From: Armatimonadota bacterium
GTDB taxonomy: Bacteria > Armatimonadota > UBA5829 > DSUL01
NCBI GenBank assembly: GCA_040769165.1
Contig: JAXGLP010000001.1
Coordinates: 728,197 to 792,196, forward strand
Length of the DNA stretch: 64,000 nt
Reading direction: 5' to 3'
Positions 12,203-58,424 of this stretch are shown one piece after another. Under the pieces are notes generated by a model, which saw nothing but the letters and a program-made list of their open reading frames with translations, was not told where the DNA came from and made no database searches. The position numbers were made by a program, and so were the translations under genes. The number at the start of each line of letters is the position of its first letter. Positions within the stretch are counted from its first letter, which is position 1.

Positions 12203-12568
12203 ATGGCCAGGCACACAGTGCACGAAAGCGAAATCGAGTATGTGAAGCTGACAGGGAGGGACCACAAGATGATCGTCGGTCCCGGCAAGGCGATGGAAGC
12301 CCGCAACATGGCGTTTGGCGTCGCCGACTTCCCCCCGCATGCGCACGCCCCCGCGCACGACCACGCGCAGGCCGAAGAGATCATCTACGTCACCTCCGGG
12401 TACGGAGAAATCTACTTCGACGGCGTCCCCGAGCCGGTGAAGGCGGGAACCGTCGCCTGCGTTCCGGAGGGAGTTGAGCACAGCATCGACAACCAGTCCG
12501 ATGAAACCATGACCATCGTCTATGTCTTCAGCCCGCCCGTCGCGCAGGGCAGCTACGAGCGGAAGTAG
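12203..12568 (+). CDS. Cupin-domain protein
   Basis: 121 aa with the cupin motifs H.H...EE.IYV..G and P.G..HS. GGAG lies upstream of the ATG. Confidence 0.7.
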   Translation: MARHTVHESEIEYVKLTGRDHKMIVGPGKAMEARNMAFGVADFPPHAHAPAHDHAQAEEIIYVTSGYGEIYFDGVPEPVKAGTVACVPEGVEHSIDNQSDETMTIVYVFSPPVAQGSYERK

Positions 12569-12608
12569 GCGCGCGGTGGCACGGGTCTCGTCAAAGCGCA
12601 AGCCTGCC

Positions 12609-14573
12609 ATGTTGAGCCGCGGGTGCGCGCGCCGGATGCTTCGCACCATGTGCCTGATCCGGCACTTCGAAGAGCGCGTCGTCAAGCTGTTCCACCAGGG
12701 GCTCATCCGGGGGGCCACCCACGTCTATCTGGGCGAAGAGGCGGTGGCGGCTGGCGCGTGCGCCGCGCTTAGGCCCGGCGACACGATCACGAGCACCCAT
12801 CGCGGGCACGGCCACTGCATAGCACGCGGGCTGGATGTGAAGCCGATGCTGGCCGAGCTTCTGGGCAAGGCAACCGGCTACTGCGGCGGCAAGGGCGGCA
12901 GCATGCACATCGCCGACCTGAAGCGCGGCATCCTTGGGGCGAACGGAATTGTGGGCGGCGGCATCCCCCTCGCGGCCGGAGCGGGGCTCACAGCGGCGTA
13001 CAAACAGACCGGCCAGGTCACCCTCTGTTTCTTCGGCGACGGCGCGGCCCAGCAGGGCGGGTTCCACGAATCGCTCAACCTCGCCGCCGTCTGGAAACTG
13101 CCGGTCGTTTACATCTGCGAGAACAACTGCTTCGCGCTGACCACCCCCAACCGCGACGAGTGCTGTATCGAGAATATCGGCGACAGGGCGGCGGCCTACG
13201 GCATTCCCGGCTGCGTCATTGACGGCAACGACGCGTTTGCTGTGTACGGGGCCGTCCGGAAGGCTGTGTCGCGCGCGAGACGCGGCGGCGGCCCGTCGCT
13301 CATCGAGTGCAAGACCTACCGGTGGCAGGGGCACTATCTGGGCGATCCGGAGGTCTACCGCACGAAGGCGCAGGTGCGGGAGTGGATCGCGCGCGATCCC
13401 GTCGCGCGCTCTGTCCGCGATCTCGACAGGCTCGGGATCGTTCCCGCCGCTGAGGCCGCCGCCATAGACCGGGACGCGGCGCTTGCTGTGGACGAGGCCG
13501 AGAAGTTCGCTCTGGCAAGCCCTCCGCCCGCGCCCGAAACGCTCACTCAGGGACTCTGGGCGCCCGAAAAGCCCCTTCCCGCGGCGTCAGTGTCGGGCAG
13601 CACGTGCGAGATGACGTACTGCCAGGCCCTGAACGAGGCTCTGCGCGAAGCTATGGCCGGCGATCCGGACGTGGTCGTTCTCGGCGAGGATGTCGGACTG
13701 CACGGAGGCCCGTTCCAGGTAACGAAAGGCCTGTTTGCCGAGTTCGGCGCCCGGCGCGTGCGCAACACCCCCCTCAGCGAGGCCGCCATCGCGGGGTGCA
13801 CGGTCGGCAGTGCTCTCACCGGACTGCGTCCCGTCGGCGAGATCATGTATATTGATTTCAGCACCATCGCGCTCGACCAGATCGTCAATCAGGCCGCCAA
13901 GATGCGCTACATGTTTGGCGGCGAAGCGACCCTGCCGCTTGTGATTCGCACCATGGTGGGCGCGGGGACGCGCAGCAGCGGCCAGCACTCGCAGAGCCTG
14001 GAGGCCTGGTTCTGCCACATCCCGGGCCTCAAGGTGGTGATGCCGTCCTGTCCCGCCGACGCGAAGGGGCTCCTCCGGGCCGCCATCCACGAGGACAACC
14101 CCGTCATCTTCATCGAGCTCAAGCGCCTGTACAACACGAAGGGCCCCGTCCCGCGGGGCGAGTACTTCATCCCGCTCGGCACGGCCGACGTCAAGAGGAC
14201 CGGCACGCATGCGACCGTCATCGCGACCGGCGCTCAGGTGGGCGAGGCGCTAAAGGCGGCGGAGCGTCTGGCATCAGAGGGCATCGAGGTCGAGGTGATT
14301 GACCCCCGCACGCTCTACCCGCTGGACAGGGAAGCGATAGCGGCGTCGGTTCGGAAAACGGGCCGGGCCGTGGCCGTCTCGGACGCGGTGGCGCGTTTCG
14401 GAGTCTGCGCCGAGGTCGCGTCGGTGATCATGGAAGACGCCTTCGACTATCTGGACGCCCCCGTCCGGCGCGTGGGCGGCGCGGAGGTTCCCATGCCCTA
14501 CGCGGCCGGGCTCGAGTCGTTGGCGCTCCCCGATTCAGCCGCCATCGAAGCCGCCGTGCGCAGTATTCTCTAG
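12609..14573 (+). CDS. Fused 2-oxoacid (pyruvate/acetoin-type) dehydrogenase E1 component, alpha+beta in one polypeptide
   Basis: N-terminal half carries E1-alpha motifs (RHFEERV, YLGEEA, GGKGGSMH, GDGAAQQG, CENN). C-terminal half carries E1-beta motifs (VLGEDVG..GG.F.VT, RVRNTPLSEA, IDPRTLYPLD). The frame is continuous. I chose the ATG at 12609 to avoid overlapping the cupin gene. Confidence 0.85.
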   Translation: MLSRGCARRMLRTMCLIRHFEERVVKLFHQGLIRGATHVYLGEEAVAAGACAALRPGDTITSTHRGHGHCIARGLDVKPMLAELLGKATGYCGGKGGSMHIADLKRGILGANGIVGGGIPLAAGAGLTAAYKQTGQVTLCFFGDGAAQQGGFHESLNLAAVWKLPVVYICENNCFALTTPNRDECCIENIGDRAAAYGIPGCVIDGNDAFAVYGAVRKAVSRARRGGGPSLIECKTYRWQGHYLGDPEVYRTKAQVREWIARDPVARSVRDLDRLGIVPAAEAAAIDRDAALAVDEAEKFALASPPPAPETLTQGLWAPEKPLPAASVSGSTCEMTYCQALNEALREAMAGDPDVVVLGEDVGLHGGPFQVTKGLFAEFGARRVRNTPLSEAAIAGCTVGSALTGLRPVGEIMYIDFSTIALDQIVNQAAKMRYMFGGEATLPLVIRTMVGAGTRSSGQHSQSLEAWFCHIPGLKVVMPSCPADAKGLLRAAIHEDNPVIFIELKRLYNTKGPVPRGEYFIPLGTADVKRTGTHATVIATGAQVGEALKAAERLASEGIEVEVIDPRTLYPLDREAIAASVRKTGRAVAVSDAVARFGVCAEVASVIMEDAFDYLDAPVRRVGGAEVPMPYAAGLESLALPDSAAIEAAVRSIL

Positions 14574-14893
14574 CCCCCTGCTTGCATAGCGCTGGCGGGA
14601 AGCACCATCCGGCGGATGATCGCCGCGTTTGAGGCGGCGGGCTTCGCCGCGGCGCTGCGGCTGCACGCCAACGCGGAGGCCGTGTGGCGCGCGACCCGGC
14701 CGGGCGGCATCAGCAACCTCGAAAAGAAGCTGAAGGCGCGGGGGAGGTAAACATCGGTGGCCGCTGCTCCGTTGTTTCGGGATTTCGGCCTCAGCATACC
14801 CGGCAACCCTGCGCAATCCGAAATCCCTATATGGTAGCATTTGTGTCGTACGGAGCATGAGTGGGGCGGTTTCTGCATTCAGGACCATCAAAT

Positions 14894-15070
14894 CCCGCTG
14901 AAACGCTGAATCCGGACTTCAGCGGCATCATCCCTTTCAGCGCCTCAGCGATTCCGCAAACCCCCGCGTCTCCGCCCGCCGTCCTGAATCGCGGAAGCAC
15001 GGAAGACAGAAGGAAACGCGGAATTCCGGATTCCGTGCCTCCGCCCGTCCCGCATCTCCGCGATTCCGGA
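14894..15070. repeat. 177-bp direct repeat, copy A (structured non-coding element)
   Basis: Identical to 15116..15292 except for 2 adjacent bases (15052-15053 vs 15274-15275). Contains nested inverted repeats: ccgctgaa/ttcagcgg, gaatcgcgga/tccgcgattc, gcacggaa/ttccgtgc and the palindrome cggaattccg. Confidence 0.9.
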
Positions 15071-15115
15071 AGATCCATATCCTGCCCGGCTTCCAGAATC
15101 GCGGAACGGATGAAA

Positions 15116-15292
15116 CCCGCTGAAACGCTGAATCCGGACTTCAGCGGCATCATCCCTTTCAGCGCCTCAGCGATTCCGCAAACCCCCGCGTCTCCGCCCG
15201 CCGTCCTGAATCGCGGAAGCACGGAAGACAGAAGGAAACGCGGAATTCCGGATTCCGTGCCTCCGCCCGTCCCGTGTCTCCGCGATTCCGGA
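15116..15292. repeat. 177-bp direct repeat, copy B
   Basis: Second copy, offset by 222 bp from copy A with a 45-bp spacer between them. The spacer holds a further partial 'gaatcgcggaa' motif. Confidence 0.9.
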
Positions 15293-15435
15293 GTTCCGCC
15301 GGGCAGCGTTCGCGTTGCCGCTACCAGCCGCCCGGCCGGACCTGCTGTATTTGTCTCCGGGAACTTCCGGAGCGCGGGAACGGGCCACTAGTCACGCCCT
15401 TTCGGAAGGCCCGAGCCCTGGCATCGGCTGACTTG

Positions 15436-15563
15436 CCCCCGGAGCGCACCAACCGGAACCCGTTGTTGTTGTTCCAGTTGTTCGGGTTGTTGTTGTTGCG
15501 GTTGGCGCAGCGGTTGTTGTTGTCGTTGTTGTTCCAGCTACCGCCGCGCAGAACCCGATAGCT
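15436..15563 (-). repeat. DGR template repeat (TR)
   Basis: Gap-free 128-bp match to 15713..15840. All 21 mismatches fall on A in this copy (minus-strand sense), within AAC-rich codons. The six-frame ORF 15321..15581 covering it encodes the Asn-rich ...GGSWNNNDNNNRCANRNNNNPNNWNNNNGFRLVRSGG. Confidence 0.9.
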
Positions 15564-15629
15564 CCTCCGACCCGTCCCCATTGAGAGAGCCGAGGCCCCC
15601 TCAATTCTGTTTTGTGAATTCGCGAGCGG

Positions 15630-15650
15630 GCAGGGGATTTATCCCCCTGC
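15630..15650 (-). promoter_or_regulatory. GC-rich hairpin (7-bp stem gcagggg/cccctgc, 7-nt loop) between VR and TR
   Basis: Inverted repeat read directly from the sequence, about 60 nt 3' of the target-gene stop. Could be a terminator or a DGR-type target-recognition hairpin. It has no U-tract. Confidence 0.4.
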
Positions 15651-15708
15651 ACCCCCTGCTACCGGAGAAAACGGTAAAAGGGTAAAACGGCAAAGCGTAA
15701 CCACGGAC

Positions 15709-16776
15709 TCAGCCCCCGGAGCGCACCAACCGGAACCCGACGCTGTCGTACCAGTAGTTCGGGCTGAAGAAGTTGCGGTCGGCGCAGCGGTAGTAGTAGT
15801 CGTCGAGGCCCCAGCCACCGCCGCGCAGAACCCGATAGCTGCCCGTGTAATCAAATGGACTTGTGCTCCCGGGATAAGAAACATACCAGTCCGCAACCCA
15901 CTCCCACACGTTACCAGCCATGTCCTGAAGACCATACGGACTCGCGCCCGAAGGATAACTCCCCACAGGAGCCGTCTGATACCTCTGGTAACCACCACCC
16001 GCGGAGTTGTGGTCATACCAGTTGTTGCACTTCTCATCGTCCCACTCGTTGCCCCACGGATACACGTTCGGATAACTCCCCGTCCAACGAGCCGCTTTCT
16101 CCCACTGAGCCTCCGTCGGCAAATGACCACCCGCCCACGCACAGTACGCCTCAGCCTCGTAATACGACACGCCGACAACCGGGTGAGACTGCGTCTGTGT
16201 GAATGTCTGCCCGGTGTACCAGGTCTGCTCCGCAGCCCAGTAGCGCGGCTCAGTGCGGCTGTTCGAAACCTTCCAACTCCACCCCGCGCTCGACCAGTAC
16301 GCAGGGTTGCTGTAACCGCCAGCCTCTATGAACCGGCGATACTCACCCCGCGTTACCTCATACTTCGCGATCCAGTAGCCCGAGAGATACACCGAGTGCT
16401 GGGGAAGCTCGTCGTCCCACGAATACGGCTCGCTGCCGTTGTTGCCCATCAGAAACGAACCCGCGGGGATGTAGACCATCTCGGTCGCCGCGGGGCCAAC
16501 GTAGTGCTCCACAGCGCCGGTCACCGTCAGCACGCTGCCGTCCCAGTCGCCAGTCACCACCAGGAAGTCCGACGGCGCCGCGGTGGTCCCGACGACCGTG
16601 ATCTCGCCGTTGCCGTCGCTCAGCTTCAGGGGACTCTCAGAGACGACACGACCCGCGACCTTGATGGGGTTTGGGGGCGTAGGGGAATACTGCAGGTCCG
16701 AGACGCGGACCACATACGCGCCCTGAACAGGCAGTCCGAGCACAAGCAACACACACGCACACAGCAACTTCTTCAT
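15709..16776 (-). CDS. Secreted FGE-sulfatase (SUMF1) / C-type-lectin-fold protein; DGR variable (target) protein
   Basis: Signal peptide MKKLLCACVLLVLGLPVQG, with GGAGG upstream of the ATG at 16776. FGE-sulfatase-like body (YIPAGSFLMGNN, HSVYLSGYWIAKYEVT, NVWEWVADW, RVLRGGGW...GFRLVRSGG). The VR occupies the last ~43 codons. Confidence 0.85.
   Translation of the reverse strand: MKKLLCACVLLVLGLPVQGAYVVRVSDLQYSPTPPNPIKVAGRVVSESPLKLSDGNGEITVVGTTAAPSDFLVVTGDWDGSVLTVTGAVEHYVGPAATEMVYIPAGSFLMGNNGSEPYSWDDELPQHSVYLSGYWIAKYEVTRGEYRRFIEAGGYSNPAYWSSAGWSWKVSNSRTEPRYWAAEQTWYTGQTFTQTQSHPVVGVSYYEAEAYCAWAGGHLPTEAQWEKAARWTGSYPNVYPWGNEWDDEKCNNWYDHNSAGGGYQRYQTAPVGSYPSGASPYGLQDMAGNVWEWVADWYVSYPGSTSPFDYTGSYRVLRGGGWGLDDYYYRCADRNFFSPNYWYDSVGFRLVRSGG
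15713..15840 (-). repeat. DGR variable repeat (VR) inside the 3' end of CDS 15709..16776
   Basis: Counterpart of the TR. Encodes GGGWGLDDYYYRCADRNFFSPNYWYDSVGFRLVRSGG. The last 26 nt (GGGTTCCGGTTGGTGCGCTCCGGGGG) contain no A and are identical to the TR (IMH-like). Confidence 0.9.
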
Positions 16777-16859
16777 TCGTAGTTCCTCCCTTTGCGGCTC
16801 CGCACCACAACGCTGAAACGGTGCGGACGGCTTAAGTATTGCGCATGGCCCGGCTGGTG

Positions 16860-17477
16860 TCAAGCTGAATCGCTGAACGTCTGCGCCCCCGCCGGCACGA
16901 GGCCGCTGCTGGGACTGACGCTCGTGTTGGACGGAGGGGCGGAGGCCACGGTGATCTCGCCAGCCTGATTCCAGCCGTCTCCATGCCCCGCGCGGTCGCC
17001 CACGTAGAGCCACTCCTTGAGCACCTTACCCCCCACGAGCGGCTTCAGCGTCAAGCCCACCCTCACCGTCAGCCCCGCGCCGGCGCCTGTCACCGCCGTG
17101 TCAGCACAGTGCACGGTACAGCGCGAGTTCTCGATGGTGTTCGCCGAACCCGGAGCGCAGCCGCCCAGCCATGCGCTGTTGGCGTCGTCTCGCAGCCAGA
17201 GCTTGTTCGCCGTCCGGTCGTGCCGCAGGAAGATACCGTTGTGGCCCACAAGCGCCGTGTTCAGCAGTATGCGGCAGTCGGTGATGTCGGCAAAGCCGTC
17301 GCCGTCGCTGAAGGACGCTGTGAAGGTTTGCTTCACACCGATCACAAGGCTGCCGCTCGATGGCGTGATTGTGCCGGTGACCGGCTCGCCTGCCGCATAG
17401 GCGGCAGGCGCAGATGCCGCAAGGGCGGCAACAAGCGCGCACACAAACAGCATAGAACGGATAACCGAACGGTTCAT
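16860..17477 (-). CDS. Secreted protein with one full copy plus a truncated second copy of the unrecognised 'LLLN/WLRNDAN' repeat domain
   Basis: Signal peptide MNRSVIRSMLFVCALVAALAASAPAAYA (ATG at 17477). Domain core ILLNTALVGHNGIFLRHDRTANKLWLRDDANSAWLGGCAPGSANTIENSRC matches the repeats in CDS 58425..61556 and 63081..>64000. Confidence 0.65.
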   Translation of the reverse strand: MNRSVIRSMLFVCALVAALAASAPAAYAAGEPVTGTITPSSGSLVIGVKQTFTASFSDGDGFADITDCRILLNTALVGHNGIFLRHDRTANKLWLRDDANSAWLGGCAPGSANTIENSRCTVHCADTAVTGAGAGLTVRVGLTLKPLVGGKVLKEWLYVGDRAGHGDGWNQAGEITVASAPPSNTSVSPSSGLVPAGAQTFSDSA

Positions 17478-21292: not shown

Positions 21293-22369
21293 ATGGAACA
21301 AAACGACGTCCAGTCCGCAACCGCATCCGTTCCCCCGCCGCCTCTGCCGCCGCCTGCGGCCGGCATGCCCGCCGGGGGCGGGCCTCCCGTCACCAACGCC
21401 CCCTCCGCCCGCAGAACCGGCGGCGGGCTGTGGCGATGGCTCCTGGGCTGCGGATGTCTCCTCGTCCTCTGCTGGGCGCTCCTGGCGGCGGCCATCGGCG
21501 CGCTGTTCAAGACCGGCGCGGCCCACAAGCCGTTCGGTCAGAAGGTTGCCGTCGTCTATGTCAGCGGCGCAATAAGCTCGGGCGCGTCCGATAGCGGACC
21601 GTTCTCGTCGGGCGGAGCAGCGTCCGAGCGCGTCATCCACGACCTGCGAACCGCCGTCAAGGAGTCCGGCGTCAAGGCCATCGTCCTTCGCGTCAACTCG
21701 CCCGGCGGCAGCGCCGCGGCGTCGCAGGAGATCTATCAGGAGATCGTGCGGGTTCGCGGCAAGGGCATGCCCGTCGTCGTTTCCATGGCCGATGTCGCCG
21801 CCTCGGGCGGATACTACGTCTCGGCGCCCGCGGACATGATCTTCGCCGACAACGGCACCCTGACGGGCAGCATCGGCGTCATTCTGCAGACAACCGATAT
21901 GACCGCCCTCTTCAGCAAGATCGGTCTCAAACCCGAAACGATCAAGAGCGGCAAGCACAAGGACATGTTCTCGCCCAGCCGTTCGCTCACCGACGAAGAG
22001 CGGATAATGGCCAAGGCGATGATCCTGGACATCTACGACCAGTTCGTCTCCGACGTTCTTGAAGGACGCAAGCACAAAGGTCTCACGCGCGAGAAGCTGC
22101 TTGCTGTCGCCGACGGGCGCGTGCTCACAGGCCGCCAGGCCCGCGATGCCCTGCTCGTGGACGAGATCGGGTCGTTGCAGGATGCGATCCAGGACGCCGC
22201 CAGGCGCGGCGGAATCAAGGGCGAGCCGTCCGTCTGGAAGGTGAAGCGCAGCTTCTGGGAGACGCTTGCCGAAGCAAAGATGGACGTGCGGCCCAATGTG
22301 ATTCTCGATCTCTCGCGGGCGCGAAGCGGAGGCGCGGCGCTGGACGAAATCCTGATGCAGGGCCGCTGA
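21293..22369 (+). CDS. sppA: Signal peptide peptidase SppA (36K type)
   Basis: Pro-rich N-terminus followed by a TM segment. S49 peptidase motifs: VKAIVLRVNSPGGSAAAS, SMADVAASGGYY, GSIGV, KSGKHKD. Confidence 0.8.
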   Translation: MEQNDVQSATASVPPPPLPPPAAGMPAGGGPPVTNAPSARRTGGGLWRWLLGCGCLLVLCWALLAAAIGALFKTGAAHKPFGQKVAVVYVSGAISSGASDSGPFSSGGAASERVIHDLRTAVKESGVKAIVLRVNSPGGSAAASQEIYQEIVRVRGKGMPVVVSMADVAASGGYYVSAPADMIFADNGTLTGSIGVILQTTDMTALFSKIGLKPETIKSGKHKDMFSPSRSLTDEERIMAKAMILDIYDQFVSDVLEGRKHKGLTREKLLAVADGRVLTGRQARDALLVDEIGSLQDAIQDAARRGGIKGEPSVWKVKRSFWETLAEAKMDVRPNVILDLSRARSGGAALDEILMQGR

Positions 22370-34878: not shown

Positions 34879-37800
34879 TTGGACAGTAGGACACCTGGAA
34901 CAGACAACCGAGGGGGGTTCGTGGGATTGAGACTGAGCTGGCGAACATCGGCCGGAAGCGTACTGCTTGCGCTCCTGGCGTTGCTGTGTACGGCTGGCGT
35001 TTCGCTGGCGCAGACTATCTCTCTCACCGACGGCAAGGTGACGCCGGCTTTCAGCGTGCGCGGGGCGGTTTACACCTACTCTGTAACCTACTCAGATGAG
35101 GACGCAACGCCGCCGATGTACGTGCGCGTCGTCATAGACGGCGAGACCTACACCATGCAGCGCTCTGCCGGCGCGCCCGACTATGCGGCGGGCGTTGTCT
35201 ACACCTACCAGCGCCGTCTCACCACCAGCGGCACACACCGCTATCATTTTGAAGCGCGCAATGCGTCGGGCTATGCGGTCTGGGATTTCCTCAGGTTCAG
35301 AGCCGGCGACGTGGAGGTGGAAGAGGAAGAAGACGAAGAGGGCAACGTCATCAGTTCCGTCGCCACAATCACCATCGCCGGCGAGGGGCCGTACCCGGAG
35401 TGTTACTCTGAGATAACCTGGGTCGGTGGCGACCGTGAGGGCATGGTGGACGCGGTCAACGCATCCGGGGATACGCTGACCATCGAGATTGAAGGCCCGT
35501 TTGAACCTGCGGCGCGGGGGGGTGACACGTTCGAACTCCCTTACTCGCGCAAATGCAGGTCGGCCTTTACCGTTGTCGGCGACTTCAGGGATCCCCTGGT
35601 CAACGACGCCCCGTTCCTGTCTGACCCGGTCGTCTCTCCGCGATGGAACTCGGATGGGTCGCAGGCGCACTGGACCTTCAAAATCACCTACAGCGACATC
35701 GAAGGAAACGGTCCGTCCTTCGTTCAGCTGTTCCTTGGCAGGGCGACGCTGATGGCGGCTAAGTCCGTGAGCGCAACCGAAACCGGCGCCGTCAGTCTGG
35801 CCTCCGCGCTGGGAAACAATCGGCTTCTGAACGTTGTGGGAGTCTATGATGACCCGGCGGGCGAAGGCGTCAACTACTATACGGGCGGCAGTTACAATCC
35901 GGAGACCGCGGTCGTCACGCTCGGCACGCCCCTGCCTGAGCCGAAGAGCGTGTACGTCACCTATCACGCCACGCCGATGACCTGGCAGGCGTACGATCTC
36001 ATCAAGGCCGATCCGCTCGCCTCAGGCTACACCGCCGGGGTGGAGTACGTCGTTCCCGCCCCGATTCCTCTCACCGGCTATAACACGCGGGCGCCGGGCC
36101 AGCCGCCTCATCTGTATTATTACTCTTTTGAGGCGGGTGACGGGCTTTACGACGACCGTAGGACTGGCTATCCGCTGTCGGTTGTGCCTGCACCGGCGAA
36201 GCAGCTTTTCGCGGCCGTTTCGGAGGTTCTCGGAACGCCAGGGGCTGAAGCGCCGTACCCGATGGTGTTCAACGGTCTCGGTGCCGGCTGGACTGAAACG
36301 ACGACCGGCCCGATATCCCGGATTGTCATGTCGGCCGCGTACGGGCCGCCGGAGGGCGCCGGGTTTGGTGTGCAGATCAGGACCATCTCAGCGTCGAACG
36401 AGGTCACCCCGGTTACGGACGCGAAAACGGATGACGCCCTGGGCCAGGTCACGCTGACAAGTGCGCCGGCGGCGGGCGATACGGTAACAGGCAGCTACGT
36501 TTTTGCCGAGCCTCTGCAGATGGCGCAATACGCCTCGCCGCCCGTCCTGGAGGATGGCACGGTCACCCCCGAGATCGGCGACCGCTCGGAAGCGTTCACC
36601 TACTGGGTTACCTACAAAGATGGGGCAGGCAGAGCTCCGGAATCGGTCACTGTGGTCATAGACGGTGTCGCGCGGGAGATGGCCCCGGCCGGGTCAGGCG
36701 CCCCGGACTACGCAAGCGGAGTTGTCTACCGCTACAGCACCATGCTCGCGCCCGAGACGGAGCATCAGTATCATTTCGAAGCGGTCAGCGCGGGCGGATA
36801 TGCCGTCTACGACGCGCTGCCGCTGGAGATCGTGTCGCTGCAGTACGACTACGCCGAGGACGGGGTTACCACAATCGCCACGTCACTGGCCCAGAACTGG
36901 TGGGACGAGGAGTTCGAAGGCAGCGAGATCACCTGGGTGACCGGACTCCGCGCCGGCGTCAGCGACCCTGTGGAGGGCGTCCGTGTCATAGACTACGACA
37001 GTATTACGCCAGCCGATGACCCGACCACGATCACCGTCACCGGCGTGCTCAACCGCGATCCGGAGAAAGAGCCGTTTCCTGGCGACCTGCTGACGCTGAA
37101 CCGGTCACGAAGCAGTCTCTGGCCCATCGCGGCAACGGGTGATATCGCGGGACCGTATGTCAACGACTCTCCCACTCTCACGAACTCGCAGGCCAGCCCG
37201 AGCACCAGCGTGCCGCTTCCGAACTCGGGGTGGACCTTCCAGACCACATACAGCGACATAGACAACAACGCGCCGCAGTTCGTGTACGCCATTCTGGGCC
37301 AGGCTACCGCCCGCTCTGCGCAGCCGTGCGCCGCTTCCAGCGTCAGCCAGGTGACTGTGGTTCCGCCCGACCCGGGCATTCCCGGCGAGGCCGCGCCGAA
37401 ACTGCTGAATGTCGTGGGAGTCTGGGACAACCCGAACGGCAGCGGAACCAACTACTACTCGGGCGGATCGTTCGACCCGGCCACGGGCGTGGTGACGCTC
37501 GGCACGAGTCTCGCTGCAGCCTCCACGGTCTACGTGACGTATCACTGCACCCCCATCGTGTGGGCGCCGGATGGCTCCGGCACGGGCCGGATAGCCCTCT
37601 CGAAGCTCGATCCGGGCGACATTGATTTCAGGGACGGCGCCATATTCACGACTTCCGCGCCTGTCTATTTCGATGGACCCGCGACCGGCAATATCGCGAA
37701 AGATCCGCCGAGGCTCAACTACTACTCTTTCGCTGCTTCAGACGGCTTCACTCGTGCAAAATATGCGCCCAACGACGCGCGCCCGTCTCCGGGCGCGTAC

Positions 37801-40800
37801 GGCGTCGAGATGGACATGCTGGTGACCGGCGATCAGCAGACCTACCGGATGACGTTCAACGGCTTCCCGCTCAGTTCGCGGCCTGACCCTGTCTCGCCCG
37901 TCCTGCTCGGCCCGTTGGCCGCGTCGGCCGCGGATGGTGACCTGGCGCTCGTCAACACCATCGTTACGCTGACGCCTGAAGGCGGCATGCCGCAGGTGCT
38001 GCCTCAGGGCGACTTCGCTTCGCGCATGGAGTACGAGTTGGACTATGCGCTCGGGACCGTGCGGCTCGGCGCCGCTCCTGAGCCGGGGGCTCCCGCGGAC
38101 CTCCTCCAGGCGAGCTACTGGTTCGCGCGGGCTTTGCCGATGGTGCAGTACAACAACCCGCCCGTCCTCACGTCGGGCAGGTTGGCGCCGGAGGTCGGCT
38201 CGCAGTTTACGACCTACACATACACGGTGACTTACACCGATACGGACGGCCTGAACGGCACGGCTCCGTCCTACGTTCGCGTTGTCATTGACGGGACGAC
38301 CTATTCTATGTCGCGCGTTTCGTCGGGTGTACCGATCTACCGCAATGGCGTGGAGTACCGCTACCAGACAAAGCTGGCTCCCAATACCTCCCACCGGTAC
38401 TACTTCGAGGCGAGCGACGGCTACGGGTACGCGCTCTTCCATGCGCCGTCCATCCCTGTGTCTCAGATCTCGTTCGATGCCGCCGCTGGAACAACGCTGG
38501 TGTCTGCCACCGGGCAGAGCTGGAAAGCATCGGAACACAAGAACGGCACGGTCGCCTGGGTCACCGGCAAGCGGGCCGGCAAGTACGACACCATTCTCGA
38601 CAATGCCGCCTCGACGCTCACCGTCGGTGGGCTGCTGAACGCGGATGCCGCAGTGCAGCCCGTTGTTGGCGACCAGTTCAAGGTTACGAAGTCAGAAAGC
38701 AGCCTGACCGCCTTTACCGCTCCCGGAGCCATTGACGGTCCGTTCATCAACGACGCGCCGTACCTCACCGATGGCACCGTCGTTGCCGTCGGGGCCATCA
38801 AGCGCGGTGACCCTGTTTCCTACACCGTGTCGTATCACGACAGCGACAACGACGCCCCGGCGGACGGCTACCCGATGGCCTGGGTCGGCGGCACGAACTG
38901 GGAGTTCAACGGCGGTGTCACGTCGCGCCTTTACGGTGATGTCACGCTCATCACCGACGACAGCCAGGCGTGGACGCCCTCGCAGTTCAAGGATCAGCCG
39001 CTTACGTGGATTACGGGCAAGCGCGTTGGCATCACCGACACGATCCTCGACAACACGTCGAATATGCTGATCATCAGCGGCCGGCTCGACGCGAGCATCA
39101 CGGCCCGGCCGGAGGTCAGTGACCGCTTCAGCATCCTGCAGGCGACCGGAACCGCGTCGGCCATAGACTACCGGGCCGCGGCATTTGTGGATGACACCAA
39201 AGCGTTCGTGCCGGACGCGCTCGCTGGCGAGCGCATCCAGATGGTTACCGGGTCTGGCCTCGGAGCGGTCTTCGATGTCGCCGCAAACACGGCTGAGATG
39301 CTCGTGATATCTGGACGGCAGCTTCCCACATCGTCTGCTGATCCCGCTGTCGCGGCCACGGGCGTGGCGAGCGGCGATTCGTATTCGATCCACGACTTTC
39401 TCGTCGGCGCGATTACGCTGAACGTAAACGACGGCGGCCTGGTCTCGATGAAGTTCAACAACTCGCCGGGCTGGGTCACCGACCAGTTCGCCGGGCTTGT
39501 CATCCAGATGATGAGCGGTACGGCGGTCTGGAAGAAATATACCATCCTCAACAACACCGCCGACACGCTGTACTTCTCCCAGCAGGCGAGCGTCTTCGTC
39601 AACGACGGTGTGGCGACTGGCGACGTTGTGCGCATTGCCGGTCTCAAGATGGACAAGCAAAGCCCGGGTGAGAACGATTTCACCGTCGCGCCCGGAGTGT
39701 ACTACACGGTCACCATTCCGGGGCTTGGGCTCGGCGATCACACGGTCAAATGGATGGCCTCCAACAGCCCGCTGGTGCGCGGCGTCCGAACCACCTTCCA
39801 GGGCCGGTATCCTGCCGGGGCCTCCCTCCCCGGTCCGCTCGTGACCGGTGACATACCGCCCGGCAACACCGCCCCGCAGCTTAGAAACGCGGTTGCCTCG
39901 CCGGCGATCGGTCTCACGACCAGCAACTACCGCTTCTCGGTTGACTACCGGGACGCCGACGGCGACCCGCCGGGTCCGCACGACGGAGTGGTCGGATTCC
40001 TGCAGCTAGTGGTGGATGCCGAGATCAATGGCCAGATCGTTCGCCGGACATACCGCTCTTCGGTTGACCCGGTGAGCGGCGGCGCCTGGCCCGTCAACAT
40101 CTATCGCACGATTGACTCCACTGTCTTCAGCGGCTTCCTGCTCGATGCCAGCGTGGCGCAGCTTCCGCCGGGCACGCACAGGTTCCATTTCGAGGCGTCG
40201 GACGGCTGGTCCGTGGTTCGCTACCCGTCGAACGCCGCCGACGACCCGATGGTGGTTGTCAACAGCCGGCCAACGCTCACGATTCCCGCCGCTGGCGGGG
40301 TGAGTCCGGGCGAAGGAAACACCGGCACGACATTCCGCTTCCGCGTCATCTATGCGGACGGTGATAACCAGGCGCCCGCCTCCATCAGCCTCGTGCTGGC
40401 GAAGGGCGGCGTGCCTCAGGCGCCGCTGATCCTGTCGCAGGAGGTTCCGTCGGACGGGAACTACCTGGATGGCGCGGTCTACTACGTGGACACCACGCTG
40501 CCGGCGGGAACGTACACTTATTACTTCTCGGCGAGTGATGGGGTGGAGCTGTACCCGGTCGTGACGCAGTCCCAGCCCGGCCCGATAGTCCGCGGCGAGA
40601 ACAACGCTCCGGTCCTTCTTGAAGCAGCGGTGACTCCCGCTGTCTCACCGTTTGCCGGAAACGAGTTCAACTACACCGTCCGCTACAGGGACCAGGACAA
40701 CGATCCTCCGAACCACGTGAGCCTTACTGTCTATGCAGCGGACCAGACCACGGTTCTGGACACGCTGGCCATGGAGAAGGCTGATCCGGACGACACGGCT

Positions 40801-43062
40801 TACTCGAGCGCCGAGGGCGTTTTGTATGAGTATCCGGGCTACCACTTTGGCCAGAGCGGAACGTTCTTCTACCAGTTCAGCGCATCCGACGGCGTGGACG
40901 CCACCGGCGATGTTGAGATAATGACGGGTCCGTTTGTGAACACGCCGCCGGCGCTCGGCGAGCCCGAGGTCGACAAGATGAGCGGCCCGTCCGACGAGCT
41001 CTTCACATTTGGCGTCACCTACACCGATGCCGATGGCGTCGCGCCTTCGGCGGACGGGTATGTGCGGCTGGTTTTGACGACGGGCTCCACGGTCACGAAG
41101 GTGGATATGGTCCGGCAGGCCGAAGACGGTTGGGCTGGCGGAGTGCGGTATCTGACGCAGATACAACTCGCACCCGGCACCCACAGCTTCTACTTCGAGG
41201 CGAGCGACGGGCTTGACCCGGCCGCGAGCACCGAGACAGTCAGCGGACTCACCGTGATAGCCACGCCGGGCCTCAGAAACCCCACTGTTACGCCCGGCAC
41301 GGGCAAGTCAACGGATACGTATTCGTATTCGGTCACGCTGGCGAATCCGAGCGGAAGCGGCCCGGACGAGATTCTCGTCTTCATTGACGGGACCGGTGAT
41401 GATTCGGCCCACCTGATGACGAAGGTGAACCCCTCCGACATGAACTTTGCCGAGGGCGTCCGCTATATCTACACGACCCAGCTTGCCCCGTCCGCGAGCA
41501 TTCCGGGCGGCAAGCACACCTGGTTCGTCCGCGCCACAGTGGGCGGGCAGACGATCTACCCGCCGGGGCAGAGCCCGTCAACTCCGAGTATCGGGCCGCT
41601 GGTCAACAGTGCTCCGGCGCTGACCGAAGCGAGCGTCAACCCGACATTCGGGCGCCCGTCGGACACGCAGTTCACGTTTGTCGTGACCTACACGGATGCC
41701 GACAAAGTGGCGCCGGGGGCAGGCGGCTACGTTCGGGTGGTGGTTTCGGGGGTTGCCTACCCGATGACGGCCCAGGCCAGCCCCGACTGGAAGAAGCCGG
41801 TCGTGTACACGCTCGCGACGCCTCTGCCAGGCGGGCAGCATTCGTTCTACTTCGAGGCATCCGACGGTATCGAGACAACGCGTTTGCCGGCCGGAAGCGG
41901 TCAGTTCGACGGTCCTCGAGTCAGCGCGCGCCCATTGCTGACGGACGGAGCGGTTACCCCGGATACGGGAACCACGGCGACTCAATTCACTTACACCGTG
42001 AAGTACTCCGACCCCGAAGGCGACGCTCCGGCGGTGGACGGCGTTCAGGTGCTGATTGACGGCCAGCCGCACGTGATGACGCGCGCCGCGGGCGTGCCGA
42101 ACTATGTGACGGGCGTGACATACACCTATACGACCACGCTGGGGGCGGGTTCTCACAACTTCATGTTCCAGGCGACTGATGGAACAGACCTGATCACGAG
42201 TCCTTTGCAGAGCGGCAAGCCGACTGTGGACGCGGTGGGGCTTACCGTAAACGCCTCGCCGAACCCGGCAGCGCTCGGGAGCCAGATCACTGTTTCGGGT
42301 GAGGTGCTTCCGAAGCGCGCGGCGACGCTGAATGTGGTCCTCGACCGCCCGGCGGGAGCAAACGTGAACCGCACGGTTACGACGGATGCGTCCGGCGCCT
42401 ATTCGTTCACTTTCGTGACCGACGAGGTGGGGACGTGGGATGTGCGCGTAGCCGATCCGGGAACCAGCGCCAGCGCCTCGATCAGTCCGAAACTCACCGT
42501 CAACAAAGCCACCCTGCGCGTTCAGGGCGGGGTGGTGGATATGATATCGAGCCCGGTGTACTCGGTAACCGGGGATCCGTCGGCCGTGTTTGGAAGCGCC
42601 GCCGCGCTGGGGCTTAACATCGTGAAGTGGGTTCCGGCGGCGGGAGTCTACAGCTACTACGGGGCCGCTCTCGACTTCCCTGTGCTGGGCGCGACGTCGG
42701 GCTTCTGGATCAAACCCGCGGCCACCACCACGCTGGAGCTGACGGGCGCCCTGCACGACCAGACGCAGCCGATAGCAGCGCGTGTCTCGGCGGGTTGGAA
42801 TCAGATAGGCTCCGGCTTTGTGACGCCGGTGAACTGGGCGGATGTCAGGGTGAAGTACGGCACGCAGGATCCGGTGAGCCTGTCCGAAGCTCAGTCGCGC
42901 GGATGGATCCGCGACTACGCCTGGGGGTATGATCCGATGGCGAGGCGCTACTTCCTGGTGCGCGGCTCGGGAGGCGAGGCGAGCACTCTCGATCCTTTCA
43001 GGGGCTACTGGGTGCGGTCGTTCGTTGACTGCGACCTGCTGATCCAGCCGCCCGCAAAGTAG
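34879..43062 (+). CDS. Giant secreted repeat protein (2727 aa): about 10 beta-sandwich '...Y.V.Y.D.DG..P...V.IDG....M......Y..GV.Y.Y...L..G.H.Y.FEA.DG' modules, other repeat classes, and the shared C-terminal module
   Basis: Signal-like LLALLALLCTAGVSLAQ. 8 tandem modules of about 95 aa at 39868-42190. Shared module at 42530-43059 (SAGWNQIGSGF...FRGYWVRSF). The start may be the GTG at 34921. Confidence 0.75.
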   Translation: MDSRTPGTDNRGGFVGLRLSWRTSAGSVLLALLALLCTAGVSLAQTISLTDGKVTPAFSVRGAVYTYSVTYSDEDATPPMYVRVVIDGETYTMQRSAGAPDYAAGVVYTYQRRLTTSGTHRYHFEARNASGYAVWDFLRFRAGDVEVEEEEDEEGNVISSVATITIAGEGPYPECYSEITWVGGDREGMVDAVNASGDTLTIEIEGPFEPAARGGDTFELPYSRKCRSAFTVVGDFRDPLVNDAPFLSDPVVSPRWNSDGSQAHWTFKITYSDIEGNGPSFVQLFLGRATLMAAKSVSATETGAVSLASALGNNRLLNVVGVYDDPAGEGVNYYTGGSYNPETAVVTLGTPLPEPKSVYVTYHATPMTWQAYDLIKADPLASGYTAGVEYVVPAPIPLTGYNTRAPGQPPHLYYYSFEAGDGLYDDRRTGYPLSVVPAPAKQLFAAVSEVLGTPGAEAPYPMVFNGLGAGWTETTTGPISRIVMSAAYGPPEGAGFGVQIRTISASNEVTPVTDAKTDDALGQVTLTSAPAAGDTVTGSYVFAEPLQMAQYASPPVLEDGTVTPEIGDRSEAFTYWVTYKDGAGRAPESVTVVIDGVAREMAPAGSGAPDYASGVVYRYSTMLAPETEHQYHFEAVSAGGYAVYDALPLEIVSLQYDYAEDGVTTIATSLAQNWWDEEFEGSEITWVTGLRAGVSDPVEGVRVIDYDSITPADDPTTITVTGVLNRDPEKEPFPGDLLTLNRSRSSLWPIAATGDIAGPYVNDSPTLTNSQASPSTSVPLPNSGWTFQTTYSDIDNNAPQFVYAILGQATARSAQPCAASSVSQVTVVPPDPGIPGEAAPKLLNVVGVWDNPNGSGTNYYSGGSFDPATGVVTLGTSLAAASTVYVTYHCTPIVWAPDGSGTGRIALSKLDPGDIDFRDGAIFTTSAPVYFDGPATGNIAKDPPRLNYYSFAASDGFTRAKYAPNDARPSPGAYGVEMDMLVTGDQQTYRMTFNGFPLSSRPDPVSPVLLGPLAASAADGDLALVNTIVTLTPEGGMPQVLPQGDFASRMEYELDYALGTVRLGAAPEPGAPADLLQASYWFARALPMVQYNNPPVLTSGRLAPEVGSQFTTYTYTVTYTDTDGLNGTAPSYVRVVIDGTTYSMSRVSSGVPIYRNGVEYRYQTKLAPNTSHRYYFEASDGYGYALFHAPSIPVSQISFDAAAGTTLVSATGQSWKASEHKNGTVAWVTGKRAGKYDTILDNAASTLTVGGLLNADAAVQPVVGDQFKVTKSESSLTAFTAPGAIDGPFINDAPYLTDGTVVAVGAIKRGDPVSYTVSYHDSDNDAPADGYPMAWVGGTNWEFNGGVTSRLYGDVTLITDDSQAWTPSQFKDQPLTWITGKRVGITDTILDNTSNMLIISGRLDASITARPEVSDRFSILQATGTASAIDYRAAAFVDDTKAFVPDALAGERIQMVTGSGLGAVFDVAANTAEMLVISGRQLPTSSADPAVAATGVASGDSYSIHDFLVGAITLNVNDGGLVSMKFNNSPGWVTDQFAGLVIQMMSGTAVWKKYTILNNTADTLYFSQQASVFVNDGVATGDVVRIAGLKMDKQSPGENDFTVAPGVYYTVTIPGLGLGDHTVKWMASNSPLVRGVRTTFQGRYPAGASLPGPLVTGDIPPGNTAPQLRNAVASPAIGLTTSNYRFSVDYRDADGDPPGPHDGVVGFLQLVVDAEINGQIVRRTYRSSVDPVSGGAWPVNIYRTIDSTVFSGFLLDASVAQLPPGTHRFHFEASDGWSVVRYPSNAADDPMVVVNSRPTLTIPAAGGVSPGEGNTGTTFRFRVIYADGDNQAPASISLVLAKGGVPQAPLILSQEVPSDGNYLDGAVYYVDTTLPAGTYTYYFSASDGVELYPVVTQSQPGPIVRGENNAPVLLEAAVTPAVSPFAGNEFNYTVRYRDQDNDPPNHVSLTVYAADQTTVLDTLAMEKADPDDTAYSSAEGVLYEYPGYHFGQSGTFFYQFSASDGVDATGDVEIMTGPFVNTPPALGEPEVDKMSGPSDELFTFGVTYTDADGVAPSADGYVRLVLTTGSTVTKVDMVRQAEDGWAGGVRYLTQIQLAPGTHSFYFEASDGLDPAASTETVSGLTVIATPGLRNPTVTPGTGKSTDTYSYSVTLANPSGSGPDEILVFIDGTGDDSAHLMTKVNPSDMNFAEGVRYIYTTQLAPSASIPGGKHTWFVRATVGGQTIYPPGQSPSTPSIGPLVNSAPALTEASVNPTFGRPSDTQFTFVVTYTDADKVAPGAGGYVRVVVSGVAYPMTAQASPDWKKPVVYTLATPLPGGQHSFYFEASDGIETTRLPAGSGQFDGPRVSARPLLTDGAVTPDTGTTATQFTYTVKYSDPEGDAPAVDGVQVLIDGQPHVMTRAAGVPNYVTGVTYTYTTTLGAGSHNFMFQATDGTDLITSPLQSGKPTVDAVGLTVNASPNPAALGSQITVSGEVLPKRAATLNVVLDRPAGANVNRTVTTDASGAYSFTFVTDEVGTWDVRVADPGTSASASISPKLTVNKATLRVQGGVVDMISSPVYSVTGDPSAVFGSAAALGLNIVKWVPAAGVYSYYGAALDFPVLGATSGFWIKPAATTTLELTGALHDQTQPIAARVSAGWNQIGSGFVTPVNWADVRVKYGTQDPVSLSEAQSRGWIRDYAWGYDPMARRYFLVRGSGGEASTLDPFRGYWVRSFVDCDLLIQPPAK

Positions 43063-43196
43063 TAACAGAACACGGTTGGTCTGCCCGCGGTTCGCAGAGA
43101 GCCGTGGGCAGGCAGTCTTCAGGTTGCCGGCCGGGCCGGTTACGAGTCTGGAGTTACGTAAGATTGAGCGATATTCATAAGAAGAACAGAAGAGCC

Positions 43197-46100
43197 ATGA
43201 ACCTGCTGAGCCGACTGAGGGGGCAACTGGTTGCCGCGTCTGGTCTGAGAGCCGCGCTGCCGGGTCTCGCCGCCGCGCTGGCGTGCGCCGTTCTGGCAGG
43301 GCCGGTCTCGGCTCAGTCGCTGTCTGGTCCGGGCGTCACGCCGGGTAAGGCGACCACAAACTCAATCTACAACCACACCGTGACCTGGACGTGGACCCCC
43401 TCCAACAACCATTTCCCGTGGTATGCCAATGTGGTCACCCTGGGTCCCGAAGAGGTGACGCGGGTCTATTCCGACGCCGCGCGCACGCAGCTTGTCACCG
43501 ACCAGGTGGACATTAAGATACCCGTGACATGGTTCGGCGTGGACCGGTTCTACGAGATCTGGGCCGCAAACGGCGAGAACTACCCACCGACCGCTGACCG
43601 GGTCAATGCGGGTTACCGCCCGGGCGGTAACCGCGTCCGCGTGACCCTTCCGGTGGACGAAGAAGGCAATACGATCAACCCTGTCACCGCGACCGGCGAA
43701 CTGACAGCACGGGTCCGCCTTGGCGCCTTCCGCGCGGTTGAGCGCAATGTCCCGGTTGACCCCGACGGCGACGGGCAGACGTTCTTCACCCGCGGGGCGC
43801 CGATTGTCGCGGTGGGCGGCGTGTTCGACGAAAACGGCGTGGATTACTGGGAGACCCAGGACCAGTACGGCAACCCCACAGGCGGTCTGGGCTCTGTCGT
43901 CAGCGGCGCGGGCTATCCATTCCGCTGCGGCCTCAGGCTGCCATCGCCTCTTCCCAGCCGCGTCAAGACCGTGACCCTCATCTACTATGTCGGGCCGGTG
44001 ACGCTCGGCAACATCGGTGGCGGCTTCGATGATGACGACGGAAACTACGTGCCGCTGGCGGCCGCATGGGACGGCGACAAGCCGCCGCAGGACGGCTCGA
44101 GGTTTCTCCTCTCCGCGTCGAGGGGACTCAATCTGCTCAACGACCCGCGCGCTGTGCCTGGAGTAAACCGTGTGACAGGGCCGGGGGCGACCCAGCACTG
44201 GGCCACCCGTTTCATCAAGCGCGACAGCAACGGCCGTCCCGAGCGGATAACCAGCAATACCGATGACGACGTCATACGTTACGGCGCGTATATGAAGGTG
44301 GAAGGGAGCGACACTGAGCCGGCGCAGCCGGGCGACCTGGATACGGAGTCGTTCCCGTCAACACCGCCGCTCGTGGGCGCCAATGCGGCCGTCATCAGCC
44401 CCAATCTGTTCGGGCCTTACAACTACCCAAGCGTAATCCAGAAGGTGGGTCCCACCGGCTCGACTATCATCAAGGTCTCGCCTCCTGGCGGCGGATATCT
44501 CGTGGATGTTCGCGGAGTGTGGGCCGATTCGGACGCGGACGATGACGGCGTGGCCGATCTGACCGGTCCGAACTACTACAGCGGCGGCACGTTCGATACC
44601 GCGACGAACATCATTACGCTCGGCACGGCGCTTCCGTCCTCGGTTCAGAATGTCTGGGTGGACTACGCGTACTCGAGCAGGTACTACCGCTTCGGTGATG
44701 CAGGCGAGGAAGATGACACTTCCATCTGGGGCCATGACGCGCTCGGGGCGTACCCGGCGGTTGCGTTCGTCAACCGCGCCAAGGTGTACAACCCCCTCGT
44801 GGCGGAGCAGTATATCCGCGATTACTACTGGCGCATAGACCCCGTCTCGGGCGACCTGGTTGTGAACCCTTCCGCAAGGAAGATGATCAAGATCACCGAC
44901 GACGCCGCGTTCATAGATGCCAGCGGCACGACACCGGCGGACGAACGGCTCTTCACGCCCTTCAAGCAGAACGCTCCGAACGATGGCAACAGCTCTCACT
45001 CGTTCAACTTCAGGGTCCGCTACTACAACGACCAGGGCCTTGGAGCCAGCAACTGGCTGCCGAGAGCCGATGGGCGCCCGGGCGCATCTGGCGTGATGGT
45101 GTACGTGAAGTACGATGGCGAGAACGACTTCCGGCCCTACGGCATGGCCCAGGAGAACCCGGCGGTCAACAACGTTGCGCGCGATGACAACAGCTATCCG
45201 GGCGACTACGGACTGGGATATCTCCTCAGGTTTGAACCGAATTTCGGGCTGAGCGGTATTGTCGTGGCTGGCAAGAAGAACTACCCCACGCCGACGTGGA
45301 CGCTGCCCAACAACTACATCTCGATGCCCGTGGGCCGACATCAGTACTTCTTCGCCACAAGCGATGACTCGCTGAAAGACTGGGACGGCGCCCTCTGGCG
45401 GAATCCGCAGGTGAAGGTCAGGGCCGAGAATCCCCTGAACCCCTACGATGTTCCCTGGTGGACCCAGCAGAACCCGCCCGCCTACCGTCCCGGCGAGCTG
45501 CCCTTCGGCTTTGGTGACGGCTTCATAGACAGTAATATGCGCGACACCTACAACTTCGCGGATATCACAACCTACCAGCCGGGACTGCTGAATACGGGCT
45601 ACGAGTACGAAGCGACCGAGCATCCGGTCGTGCACGCGCTGCTGTCGGGCATTCCGTTCGGGCAGGATGCCCTGGGACATGTCGGTTCGGGGTTCTTCCT
45701 CGGAACGCTCTCCCCGTATGTGCCGGCCGTGAATCCGCGGCAGCCGCCCGTGCCTACCGGAATGTCTGCCGGGTTCAACCTTGCGGGTGCCTGGCAGACA
45801 ACGTCCATGGGCACTGCGTCCACCTTATTCACCTTCAAGGTGATCTGGCAGTCGTTCGACCCCGACACAAAGGTGGGCCGCCCGCCGAAGTACATCAAGG
45901 TTTTCGTCAACAACAAGTCCACCGCCAAGCCGACGCTGGACACGGACAATACGACGGTTGACCCCGCCGCGAAGTACACCGGCTACACGATGGTGCCGGT
46001 CAAGGCCAACCCGACGGCCGCCGACTACGCGGCCGGCCTCACCTATCAGTATCAGACCACGCTGCCGCCGGGCCCGCATACGTACTACTTCGAGGCCGAT

Positions 46101-58365: not shown

Positions 58366-58424
58366 TGTACCTGCCCTCCCGCACACTGTTCAGGGAGGAA
58401 CTCTGCACGAGCGAAGGAGTCACG

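Follow-up and report, generated by a model that had tools for sequence, protein, structure and literature searches.

How can a gene be diversified from a template where no reverse transcriptase (RT) is encoded beside it? The question is raised by a 64,000-nucleotide stretch of DNA from an Armatimonadota bacterium (assembly GCA_040769165.1, contig JAXGLP010000001.1, positions 728,197 to 792,196 of the forward strand), referred to here as the window. Its minus strand carries the target gene, variable repeat (VR) and template repeat (TR) of a diversity-generating retroelement (DGR), with neither the RT nor the accessory protein Avd. Our analysis indicates that the locus is probably a satellite DGR cassette without RT and Avd that depends on an Avd-RT pair encoded elsewhere. 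Related loci, numbered with an L where they must be told apart, supply much of the evidence, and the coordinates of all window features are collected in the table below.

Between the TR of the window, termed TR_B, and the VR there are 21 mismatches. Each affects one of the 38 adenines among the 129 nt of the TR, and none of the 91 non-adenine positions is changed (hypergeometric P = 3.9e-14). An earlier note on this DNA had placed the same number of substitutions solely at A-templated sites and had put the distance between the repeats at roughly 150 bp; the first statement is borne out, and the spacer measures 148 nt. Every mismatch lies at codon position 1 or 2 in the frame of the target gene. 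The VR makes up the 43 C-terminal codons of that gene, ending 1 nt short of the stop codon, and the TR/VR pattern has only these two occurrences within the window. The locus shares with canonical DGRs the A-restricted TR/VR differences, a VR at the 3′ end of an FGE-type open reading frame (ORF) and a GC-rich inverted repeat 3′ of the VR. It lacks a DGR-clade RT gene and an Avd/HRDC-type accessory gene beside an RT or the TR.

The earlier observations that no RT or Avd adjoins the TR/VR cassette, and that no YxDD-type RT ORF occurs in the 64 kb, withstood each search. The 861 nt past the TR hold no RT-like or Avd-like ORF. Among ORFs in 14535-15652, no Pfam family scored above its cut-off, the sole match being a weak, sub-threshold one to DUF7542 in an ORF that runs through a repetitive extragenic palindrome (REP)-like repeat. 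Across the whole window, a six-frame scan for [YF].DD gave no RT-like context, and tblastn with two RTs and one Avd of the same DGR family gave random matches only. Hidden Markov models of RT (120 homologues) and Avd (5 proteins), run unfiltered on the full set of 813 six-frame segments that reach 40 aa or more, also found nothing (best E-values of 0.16 for RT and 0.64 for Avd). None of these searches revealed an overlooked RT ORF. A tblastn match of the L008 RT ORF to 14763-15279 was considered as a possible remnant of an RT gene and rejected, since only residues 347-421, past the RT domain, were matched and the DNA is the REP-like repeat, which occurs elsewhere.

The position from which the genes are missing is indicated by the nearest canonical relatives that we found, the Armatimonadota/Fimbriimonadia loci L015, L016, L017, L019 and L021. 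These loci (L017 together with L018) are ordered FGE target/VR, bAvd, RT, TR and Sp, the last being a structured RNA that flanks the TR. Their RTs are 63-87% identical to that of L008, a 431-aa ORF with an RVT_1 domain (E=1e-24) and the motifs IGNLTSQ and YVDD. In every canonical relative, avd and RT lie within 2-4 kb, between VR and TR. The earlier note had assumed the TR to precede the RT (target-avd-TR-RT) and had looked for the gap beyond the TR, and here it was mistaken: the TR of the relatives is downstream of the RT, so the genes missing from the window would have occupied the 148-nt spacer and not the 860 bp past the TR.

The spacer itself retains a trace of this arrangement in its motifs. 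Canonical loci share a post-VR design, in which the stop codon is followed by a T-rich tract like ‘TTTTACCC’, then GGGGGT and a GC-rich hairpin. A short C/G motif comes next, and a T-rich stretch carrying a ribosome-binding site leads to the avd start. The hairpin stem varies in sequence yet keeps its pairing, GGGGGT and a GC stem being present with altered stem sequences in L015, L016, L018, L019 and L021. In the window, the hairpin lies ~58 nt from the VR, and the last ~30 nt of the spacer can be aligned with the DNA just 5′ of the TR in RT-linked loci. We infer that the cassette descended from a canonical element through loss of avd and RT; it resembles such an element in motif order more than in sequence identity.

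The RT-less architecture recurs in at least four other assemblies. A pattern scan of species-representative genomes recovered only L001, on a 4-kb contig of the Armatimonadota metagenome-assembled genome JBPOJE01, and a TR-specific metagenome scan recovered five further loci (L007-L011). L001, L007, L009 and L011 share the order of the window, namely target, VR, a spacer of 148-149 nt, TR and ~160 nt of conserved DNA, and no RT is present in their available contig sequence. The contig of L011 stops inside Sp, and 3′ flanks are thus seen for three of these four sisters. The genes downstream are HsdM in L001, a REP-associated tyrosine transposase (RAYT) in L007, TolC/ABC in L009 and an E1 dehydrogenase in the window; some upstream flanks differ among the cassettes too. 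The window starts to match L009, and L002 of assembly GCA_033813335.1, sharply at position 16879, and its match to L009, L007 and L001 stops at ~15282-15296. Between these edges, the window is 97-98% identical to the four sisters in the spacer, 99% in the TR (128/129 positions) and 98-99% in Sp, while the sisters are 99-100% identical among themselves in all three parts. In the target coding sequence, identity of the window to L001, L009 and L011 is ~85-92%, the value depending on the alignment.

Against this uniform background, the VRs vary. L009 and L011 have coding sequences that are 99.1% identical, but VRs that are merely 87% identical and unequal in length. L022, the closest relative of the window, is 97.2% identical to it over 1.9 kb, yet differs in the VR. 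When seven VR alleles were pooled, adenines accounted for 139 mismatches to the TR and other bases for 3, of which two are a single TR polymorphism (AGC/AGT). Adenine-site VR variation between closely related genomes, here L022 and the window as well as L009 and L011, is the pattern expected of an RT-less locus that is diversified in trans. The RT-less cassette family has diversified recently. A very old fossil, which the earlier note had deemed unlikely, agrees neither with the lack of non-A mismatches in the window nor with the differing VRs of sister cassettes whose flanks are 97-99% identical. Covariation of AGC/AGT between TR and VR was also considered as proof that homing followed divergence, but L001 and L007 show it and L009 and L011 do not, so that it supports the idea weakly at best.

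Two further observations concern these repeats. Relative to the TR, the VR is 3 nt longer in L009 and 6 nt shorter in L011, and in L002 it has changes of -3 and +3 nt; all of these lie inside AAC-repeat tracts. This suggests slippage in reverse transcription or replication, which is unusual for DGR homing. L010 (Ga0079101_1025504) is an AT-rich contig with a GDP-fucose-synthase-like gene that contains, at ~1410-1585 in TR orientation, ~40 nt of pre-TR sequence and an entire, unmutated TR_B, with no other part of the cassette. We take it for a probable assembly or library chimera, in which the insert covers what a full-length DGR cDNA template would.

The conserved DNA beyond the TR appears to encode an RNA structure. 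Approximately 160 nt 3′ of the TR were aligned from eight distinct loci, two RT-less and six RT-linked. The consensus has 41 pairs, of which 19 show compensatory changes; 93% of alignment cells pair, as compared to 30-47% after partners were shifted by 1-3 columns, and 500 column shuffles never attained these values. P1 pairs the first nucleotides past the TR (AAGUCAGCC) with GGCGUGACU and encloses P2, a stem-loop of ~10 bp that is capped by GAAA in L001 and L017. A P3 hairpin is followed by an A-rich run, and GACUA, GGCNCGUUCCCG, ACAAAUANAG and GGCUGGUAG are conserved as single-stranded motifs. In 8/8 sequences, ~10 nt located 5′ of the TR (GGGAYGGGYC) are predicted to form a duplex with GGCYCGUUCCC of Sp at -20 to -28 kcal/mol. 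Rfam holds no family for this TR-flanking RNA, its only matches being weak, spurious and miRNA-like, on the REP hairpins. A covariance model of Sp finds one copy in the window; its other match (22194-22289, 11 bits) is noise. The structure fits what has been described for BPP-1 together with 207 further DGRs of the Avd type, which have an Avd-binding tetraloop stem-loop just 3′ of the TR and a ‘stop’ duplex across the TR (10.1101/2023.10.23.563531). By analogy, P2 is a putative Avd-binding stem-loop.

A candidate source of the enzymes is found on contigs L012-L014, where the 3′ end of avd is followed by RT, a PIN-domain gene, a small ORF, TR_A and Sp_A. Their RTs fall into one 90% cluster with that of L008 (the cluster representative is 99% identical). 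The earlier suggestion that an identical TR might sit next to an RT elsewhere holds in part: a related avd-RT locus exists in related populations, but its TR differs at the 3′ end. TR_A of L012 and TR_B have the 5′ two-thirds in common. TR_A then ends ...AACAACAACTGGAACAACAACGGGTTCCGTCTCGCCC or ...GGGTTCCGTCTCGCCC, and the VR and TR_B end ...GGGTTCCGGTTGGTGCGCTCCGGGGGC; the window VR does not match TR_A at every one of the non-A sites. For the 3′ end of cassette VRs, TR_A can therefore not be the template, and the cassettes need a TR of their own. Sp_A and its cassette counterpart Sp_B are ~79% identical with compensated changes at paired positions, as we would expect if the same enzyme pair recognised both RNAs.

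The contig of L008 is a hybrid whose RT side matches L012; it shares 99.84% identity with L009 along 4.3 kb of its other side, and the crossover falls in the shared TR core. Be it a true recombinant or a chimera, it places both locus types, RT-linked and RT-less, in a single sampled population. The ENA project series that yielded the RT loci L013 and L014 also yielded L022, a link between the window lineage and the RT loci that is suggestive only.

Taken as a satellite, the cassette has lost avd and RT, which in canonical relatives stand between hairpin and TR, and has retained its cis-acting parts: a target with a C-terminal VR, the T-rich tract, the GC hairpin, its own TR, the pre-TR strand and ~140 nt of Sp. 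The target promoter would give a read-through target-TR-Sp RNA, and the Avd-RT complex of a master DGR elsewhere in the genome would bind the conserved Sp structure and make adenine-mutagenised cDNA off TR_B. This cDNA would then replace the VR, guided by the 3′ end that the two repeats have in common and by the downstream hairpin.

Several observations weigh against this interpretation. A promoter scan of 14500-17000 found no sigma-70-like promoter for the TR itself, including in the spacer. The high conservation of the non-coding parts could stem from recent spread instead of selection. The related avd-RT is seen on contigs other than that of the window (L012-L014), and the coexistence of master and satellite is drawn from a hybrid contig, which may be an assembly chimera, and from samples of the same ENA series. 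Service of a second TR RNA in trans by one RT-Avd pair is, for the Armatimonadota DGR family, a proposal only. Further objections come from the RNA module of the window copy. A 19-nt deletion between 15399 and 15398 (GGACGCCCGGGGAGTGCCC in L001) strips the whole 3′ strand of P2. It is unique to the window among 12 family members; P2 is intact, with compensatory changes, in all 11 others. The window Sp scores 112.5 bits by the covariance model as compared to 159-161 for complete, intact sisters (a loss of ~48 bits), and when folded alone it lacks P2 and has a z of -1.0 (L001, -3.4; L017, -2.5). P1, P3, the pre-TR:Sp duplex and the single-stranded motifs are present. A 1-nt deletion in the post-VR hairpin, unique among five RT-less cassettes, leaves a bulge and a shortened hairpin. 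Together, the Sp and hairpin deletions suggest decay.

These deletions are the strength of the closest rival, that the locus is a recently dead remnant which once diversified, either in cis while avd-RT was still there or in trans later, has since been silenced by the Sp deletion or by loss of its RT, and now has a frozen VR. It agrees with the satellite reading on origin and differs in present activity alone. Deletion of the Avd-binding stem-loop of BPP-1 (Sp 5-32) lowers cDNA synthesis (bioRxiv 10.1101/2023.10.23.563531), and the REP-like insertions lie directly 3′ of Sp. However, the TR is intact in all 38 adenines with no non-A mismatch to the VR, the RNA module otherwise agrees with that of the sisters at 98-99% identity, the equation of P2 with the BPP-1 stem-loop is by analogy, and the 19-nt deletion may be very recent or an assembly error. 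With an intact TR and a VR free of non-A drift, any loss of function must be recent. On balance, we regard a dead remnant as less likely than the satellite reading, though as the most serious competitor. The earlier note had posed an either/or of an RT encoded elsewhere or a fossil; that framing is supported overall, and the 19-nt deletion keeps the recently disabled branch alive for the window copy. We put the odds of its being impaired or dead by now at about even.

An ordinary but stretched DGR, with avd-RT in cis beyond the window and no separate master, is improbable. The window reaches only ~14.5 kb from the cassette toward E1 and ~47 kb in the opposite direction, and components of remote-target DGRs are known to lie tens to hundreds of kb apart (PMC5758913). 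Canonical relatives, in contrast, keep avd-RT close at hand between the two repeats, the RT-linked L012-L014 bear a different TR of their own, and the cassette is a block with sharp homology edges in several unrelated contexts. An assembly artefact, in which avd-RT collapsed out or the join is chimeric, is very improbable: DGR repeats do often disturb assemblies (the L008 hybrid, the chimera-like L010 and contigs that end at the VR or in avd), but the order VR-spacer-TR-Sp was independently assembled in four other datasets from different projects, and the spacer is unique, continuous sequence with no repeat flanking the expected position of avd-RT.

Table 1. Features of the probable satellite DGR cassette and its surroundings in the window (window coordinates)
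Feature	Position	Strand	Remarks
Sigma-70-like promoter TTGACA-17-AATACT	16835-16863	-	5′ of target gene
DGR target gene	15709-16776	-	355 aa; Pfam FGE-sulfatase PF03781, E=2.7e-62
VR	15712-15840	-	129 nt; 21 A-to-N differences from TR
VR-TR spacer	15564-15711	-	148 nt; motif order of VR-to-avd intergenic region plus ~30 nt pre-TR
Spacer T-rich tract	15664-15694	-	from motif comparison with canonical loci
Spacer GGGGGT and GC-rich hairpin	15630-15656	-	hairpin GCAGGGGGATAAATCCCCTGC at 15630-15650
Spacer ribosome-binding-site-like remnant ATTGAGGGGG	15596-15605	-	resembles avd ribosome-binding site of L021
Pre-TR strand GGGGACGGGTC	15569-15579	-	predicted to pair with Sp
TR_B	15435-15563	-	129 nt; 38 adenines; mainly AAC codons
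Sp-like structured RNA	15293-15434	-	142 nt; adjoins TR; element ends ~15296
Sp P1	15426-15434 with 15390-15398	-	pairing
Sp P2, 5′ half only	15399-15416	-	3′ strand deleted
Sp strand pairing with pre-TR	15376-15386	-	predicted duplex
Sp P3 hairpin	15355-15373	-	consensus structure
Sp A-rich ACAAATACAG	15345-15354	-	after P3
Sp GGCTGGTAG motif	15321-15329	-	conserved motif
REP-like element, two copies	15113-15292, 14891-15070	-	180 nt each, 98% identical; outside conserved cassette
Remaining non-coding DNA	14574-14890	.	317 nt to E1 stop; no DGR function assigned
E1 dehydrogenase gene	12522-14573	+	convergent neighbour, outside element; E1_dh, Transket_pyr and Transketolase_C

The target protein has an N-terminal signal peptide (MKKLLCACVLLVLGLPVQGA) and a ~95-aa domain, followed by the FGE-sulfatase domain of C-type-lectin fold that ends in the VR. 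This type of fold is a common substrate of DGR diversification (PMC5758913). The promoter listed 5′ of the target gene is the sole promoter-like site across 14500-17000 and likely drives the read-through transcript of target, TR and Sp. Full-length homologues of the target that are 79% identical occur in L003-L006 and have a diversified, VR-like 3′ end ...GGGTTCCGGTTGGTGCGCTCCGAGGGC (e.g., L003 10950-11090). No TR, family-type hairpin or RT lies within 10 kb of them, so VR-only remote targets coexist with TR-bearing cassettes in the lineage. Two scans of viral contigs for TR/VR patterns gave no match and no sign of a phage origin. Neither the target protein nor the E1 protein of the window had an exact match in the collections searched.

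The earlier note had described about 860 bp beyond the TR as reaching the end of the E1 gene, and the 861 nt at 14574-15434 indeed abut the E1 stop codon. This region has an internal structure that had gone unseen, with the structured RNA beside the TR and then the two REP-like repeats. Each REP-like unit forms two long hairpins (z=-3.1) and has a terminator-like hairpin with a T-run on the cassette strand. No further copies of the 180-nt repeat occur in the window. Just 3′ of the RT domain, L008 (5483-5634) and L012-L014 (L012 1160-1311) carry copies of ~84% identity, a partial copy follows Sp_A in L012 (2330-2420) and L013, and short fragments are present in L002, L009 and L015. The RAYT of L007 (83.9 bits against a cut-off of 80) adjoins its cassette. 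The cassette homology block is flanked at both ends by GAATCGC-type motifs. The REP-like repeats may drive rearrangement or spread of DGR modules. In the remaining non-coding DNA up to E1, an inverted repeat of 10 bp (GGGATTTCGG...CCGAAATCCC) occurs, as does a 45-aa ORF without a family match.

The contigs of L008, L012, L013 and L014, from four assemblies, all end inside avd, 44-115 nt 5′ of the RT start, which hints at a repeat or at strong strain variation in or upstream of avd. DGR operons of the family also hold extra genes (L008 4997-5446 and 4788-5105; L012 1348-2006 and 2432-2836; L015 7962-8264). Among these are a PIN-domain protein and a small ORF between RT and TR, possibly a toxin-antitoxin pair, a GxxExxY/PDDEXK_3 protein 3′ of Sp, and a GIY-YIG protein between avd and RT.

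Elsewhere in the window, the E1 gene, which encodes the E1 component of a 2-oxoacid dehydrogenase, fuses the alpha (E1_dh) and beta (Transket_pyr and Transketolase_C) subunits into one 683-aa protein. Two adjacent giant ORFs at 34879-43062 and 43104-50663 encode 2727 and 2519 aa with many diverged internal repeats (e.g., YYFEASDG), and a further repeat family occupies 59145-63914 within 58365-63914. The giant ORFs probably encode large surface or adhesin-like proteins.

RT-less DGR loci have been reported before. In Thiohalocapsa PB-PSB1, ‘degenerate’ loci have repeats resembling MITEs (miniature transposable elements with inverted repeats) in place of the RT, and their diversification in trans was proposed (PMC10907252). 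DGR 4 and 5 of that organism resemble the window in lacking an RT, in lying beside MITE-like or REP-like repeats, in having targets that still vary in nature and in their proposed service in trans (PMC10907252). Their VRs, however, match the TR of the complete DGR 2, whereas the window cassette has its own TR with a distinct 3′ end, and its family keeps the RNA module and repeats the same RT-less architecture across strains and contexts. An incomplete DGR without an RT ORF has been described in Nanoarchaeota (PMC4372165). It likewise combines TR, VR and target without an RT in a lineage with several DGRs; it is a single fragment on a short contig, for which no conserved RT-less architecture or RNA module was shown. 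What sets the present locus apart is the distinct TR, the RNA module and the recurrent, compact architecture.

Other known systems share parts of this arrangement. BPP-1 and canonical Avd-type DGRs are alike in their A-specific TR-to-VR mismatches, in a VR that ends a gene of C-type-lectin/FGE fold and in a GC-rich hairpin after the VR, but the window locus has no avd or RT in 64 kb and has lost half of the TR-proximal stem-loop. In phage DGRs, the post-VR hairpin lies 4-34 nt from the VR (PMC3240598), closer than in the window. Avd, TR and brt work in trans from a plasmid (PMC5758913), and 45/372 DGRs have non-adjacent targets, with remote targets in, for example, Treponema denticola (Wu et al. 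2018, PMC5758913). In such DGRs, a single RT likewise acts on distant targets; these are VR-only, whereas the window cassette brings a TR and Sp. Stenotrophomonas sp. SKA14 has two TRs, and more than one TR occurs in ~20% of multi-VR DGRs (PMC6642488). Several TRs are there presumably under one RT, as we propose here, but the extra TRs were counted within the same predicted DGR, whereas the window TR is unlinked from an RT and has its own target.

DGR surveys begin at the RT and then seek nearby repeats, so that TR-bearing, RT-less cassettes are systematically overlooked. The family described here provides matched natural test material, with RT-linked and RT-less RNA modules and a 19-nt deletion allele, and it is relevant to engineered DGR mutagenesis with template RNAs supplied in trans. 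If service in trans is true, the conserved Sp structure would define the recognition target of the enzyme. A broader hypothesis, which we hold only tentatively, is a network of one RT and many templates in Armatimonadota, in which self-contained promoter-target-VR-hairpin-TR-Sp cassettes of ~1.6 kb, devoid of avd and RT but with a full DGR RNA and a TR 3′ end of their own, have spread to several sites with edges near REP-like motifs and RAYT genes and use the Avd-RT of an unlinked master. The window would then hold a naturally arisen 19-nt deletion in the putative stem-loop for Avd binding, and one enzyme pair would diversify several unlinked genes from different templates. Should one Avd-RT pair indeed act on TR RNAs to which it is not linked, a genome's capacity for diversification would be larger and more modular than RT counts imply.

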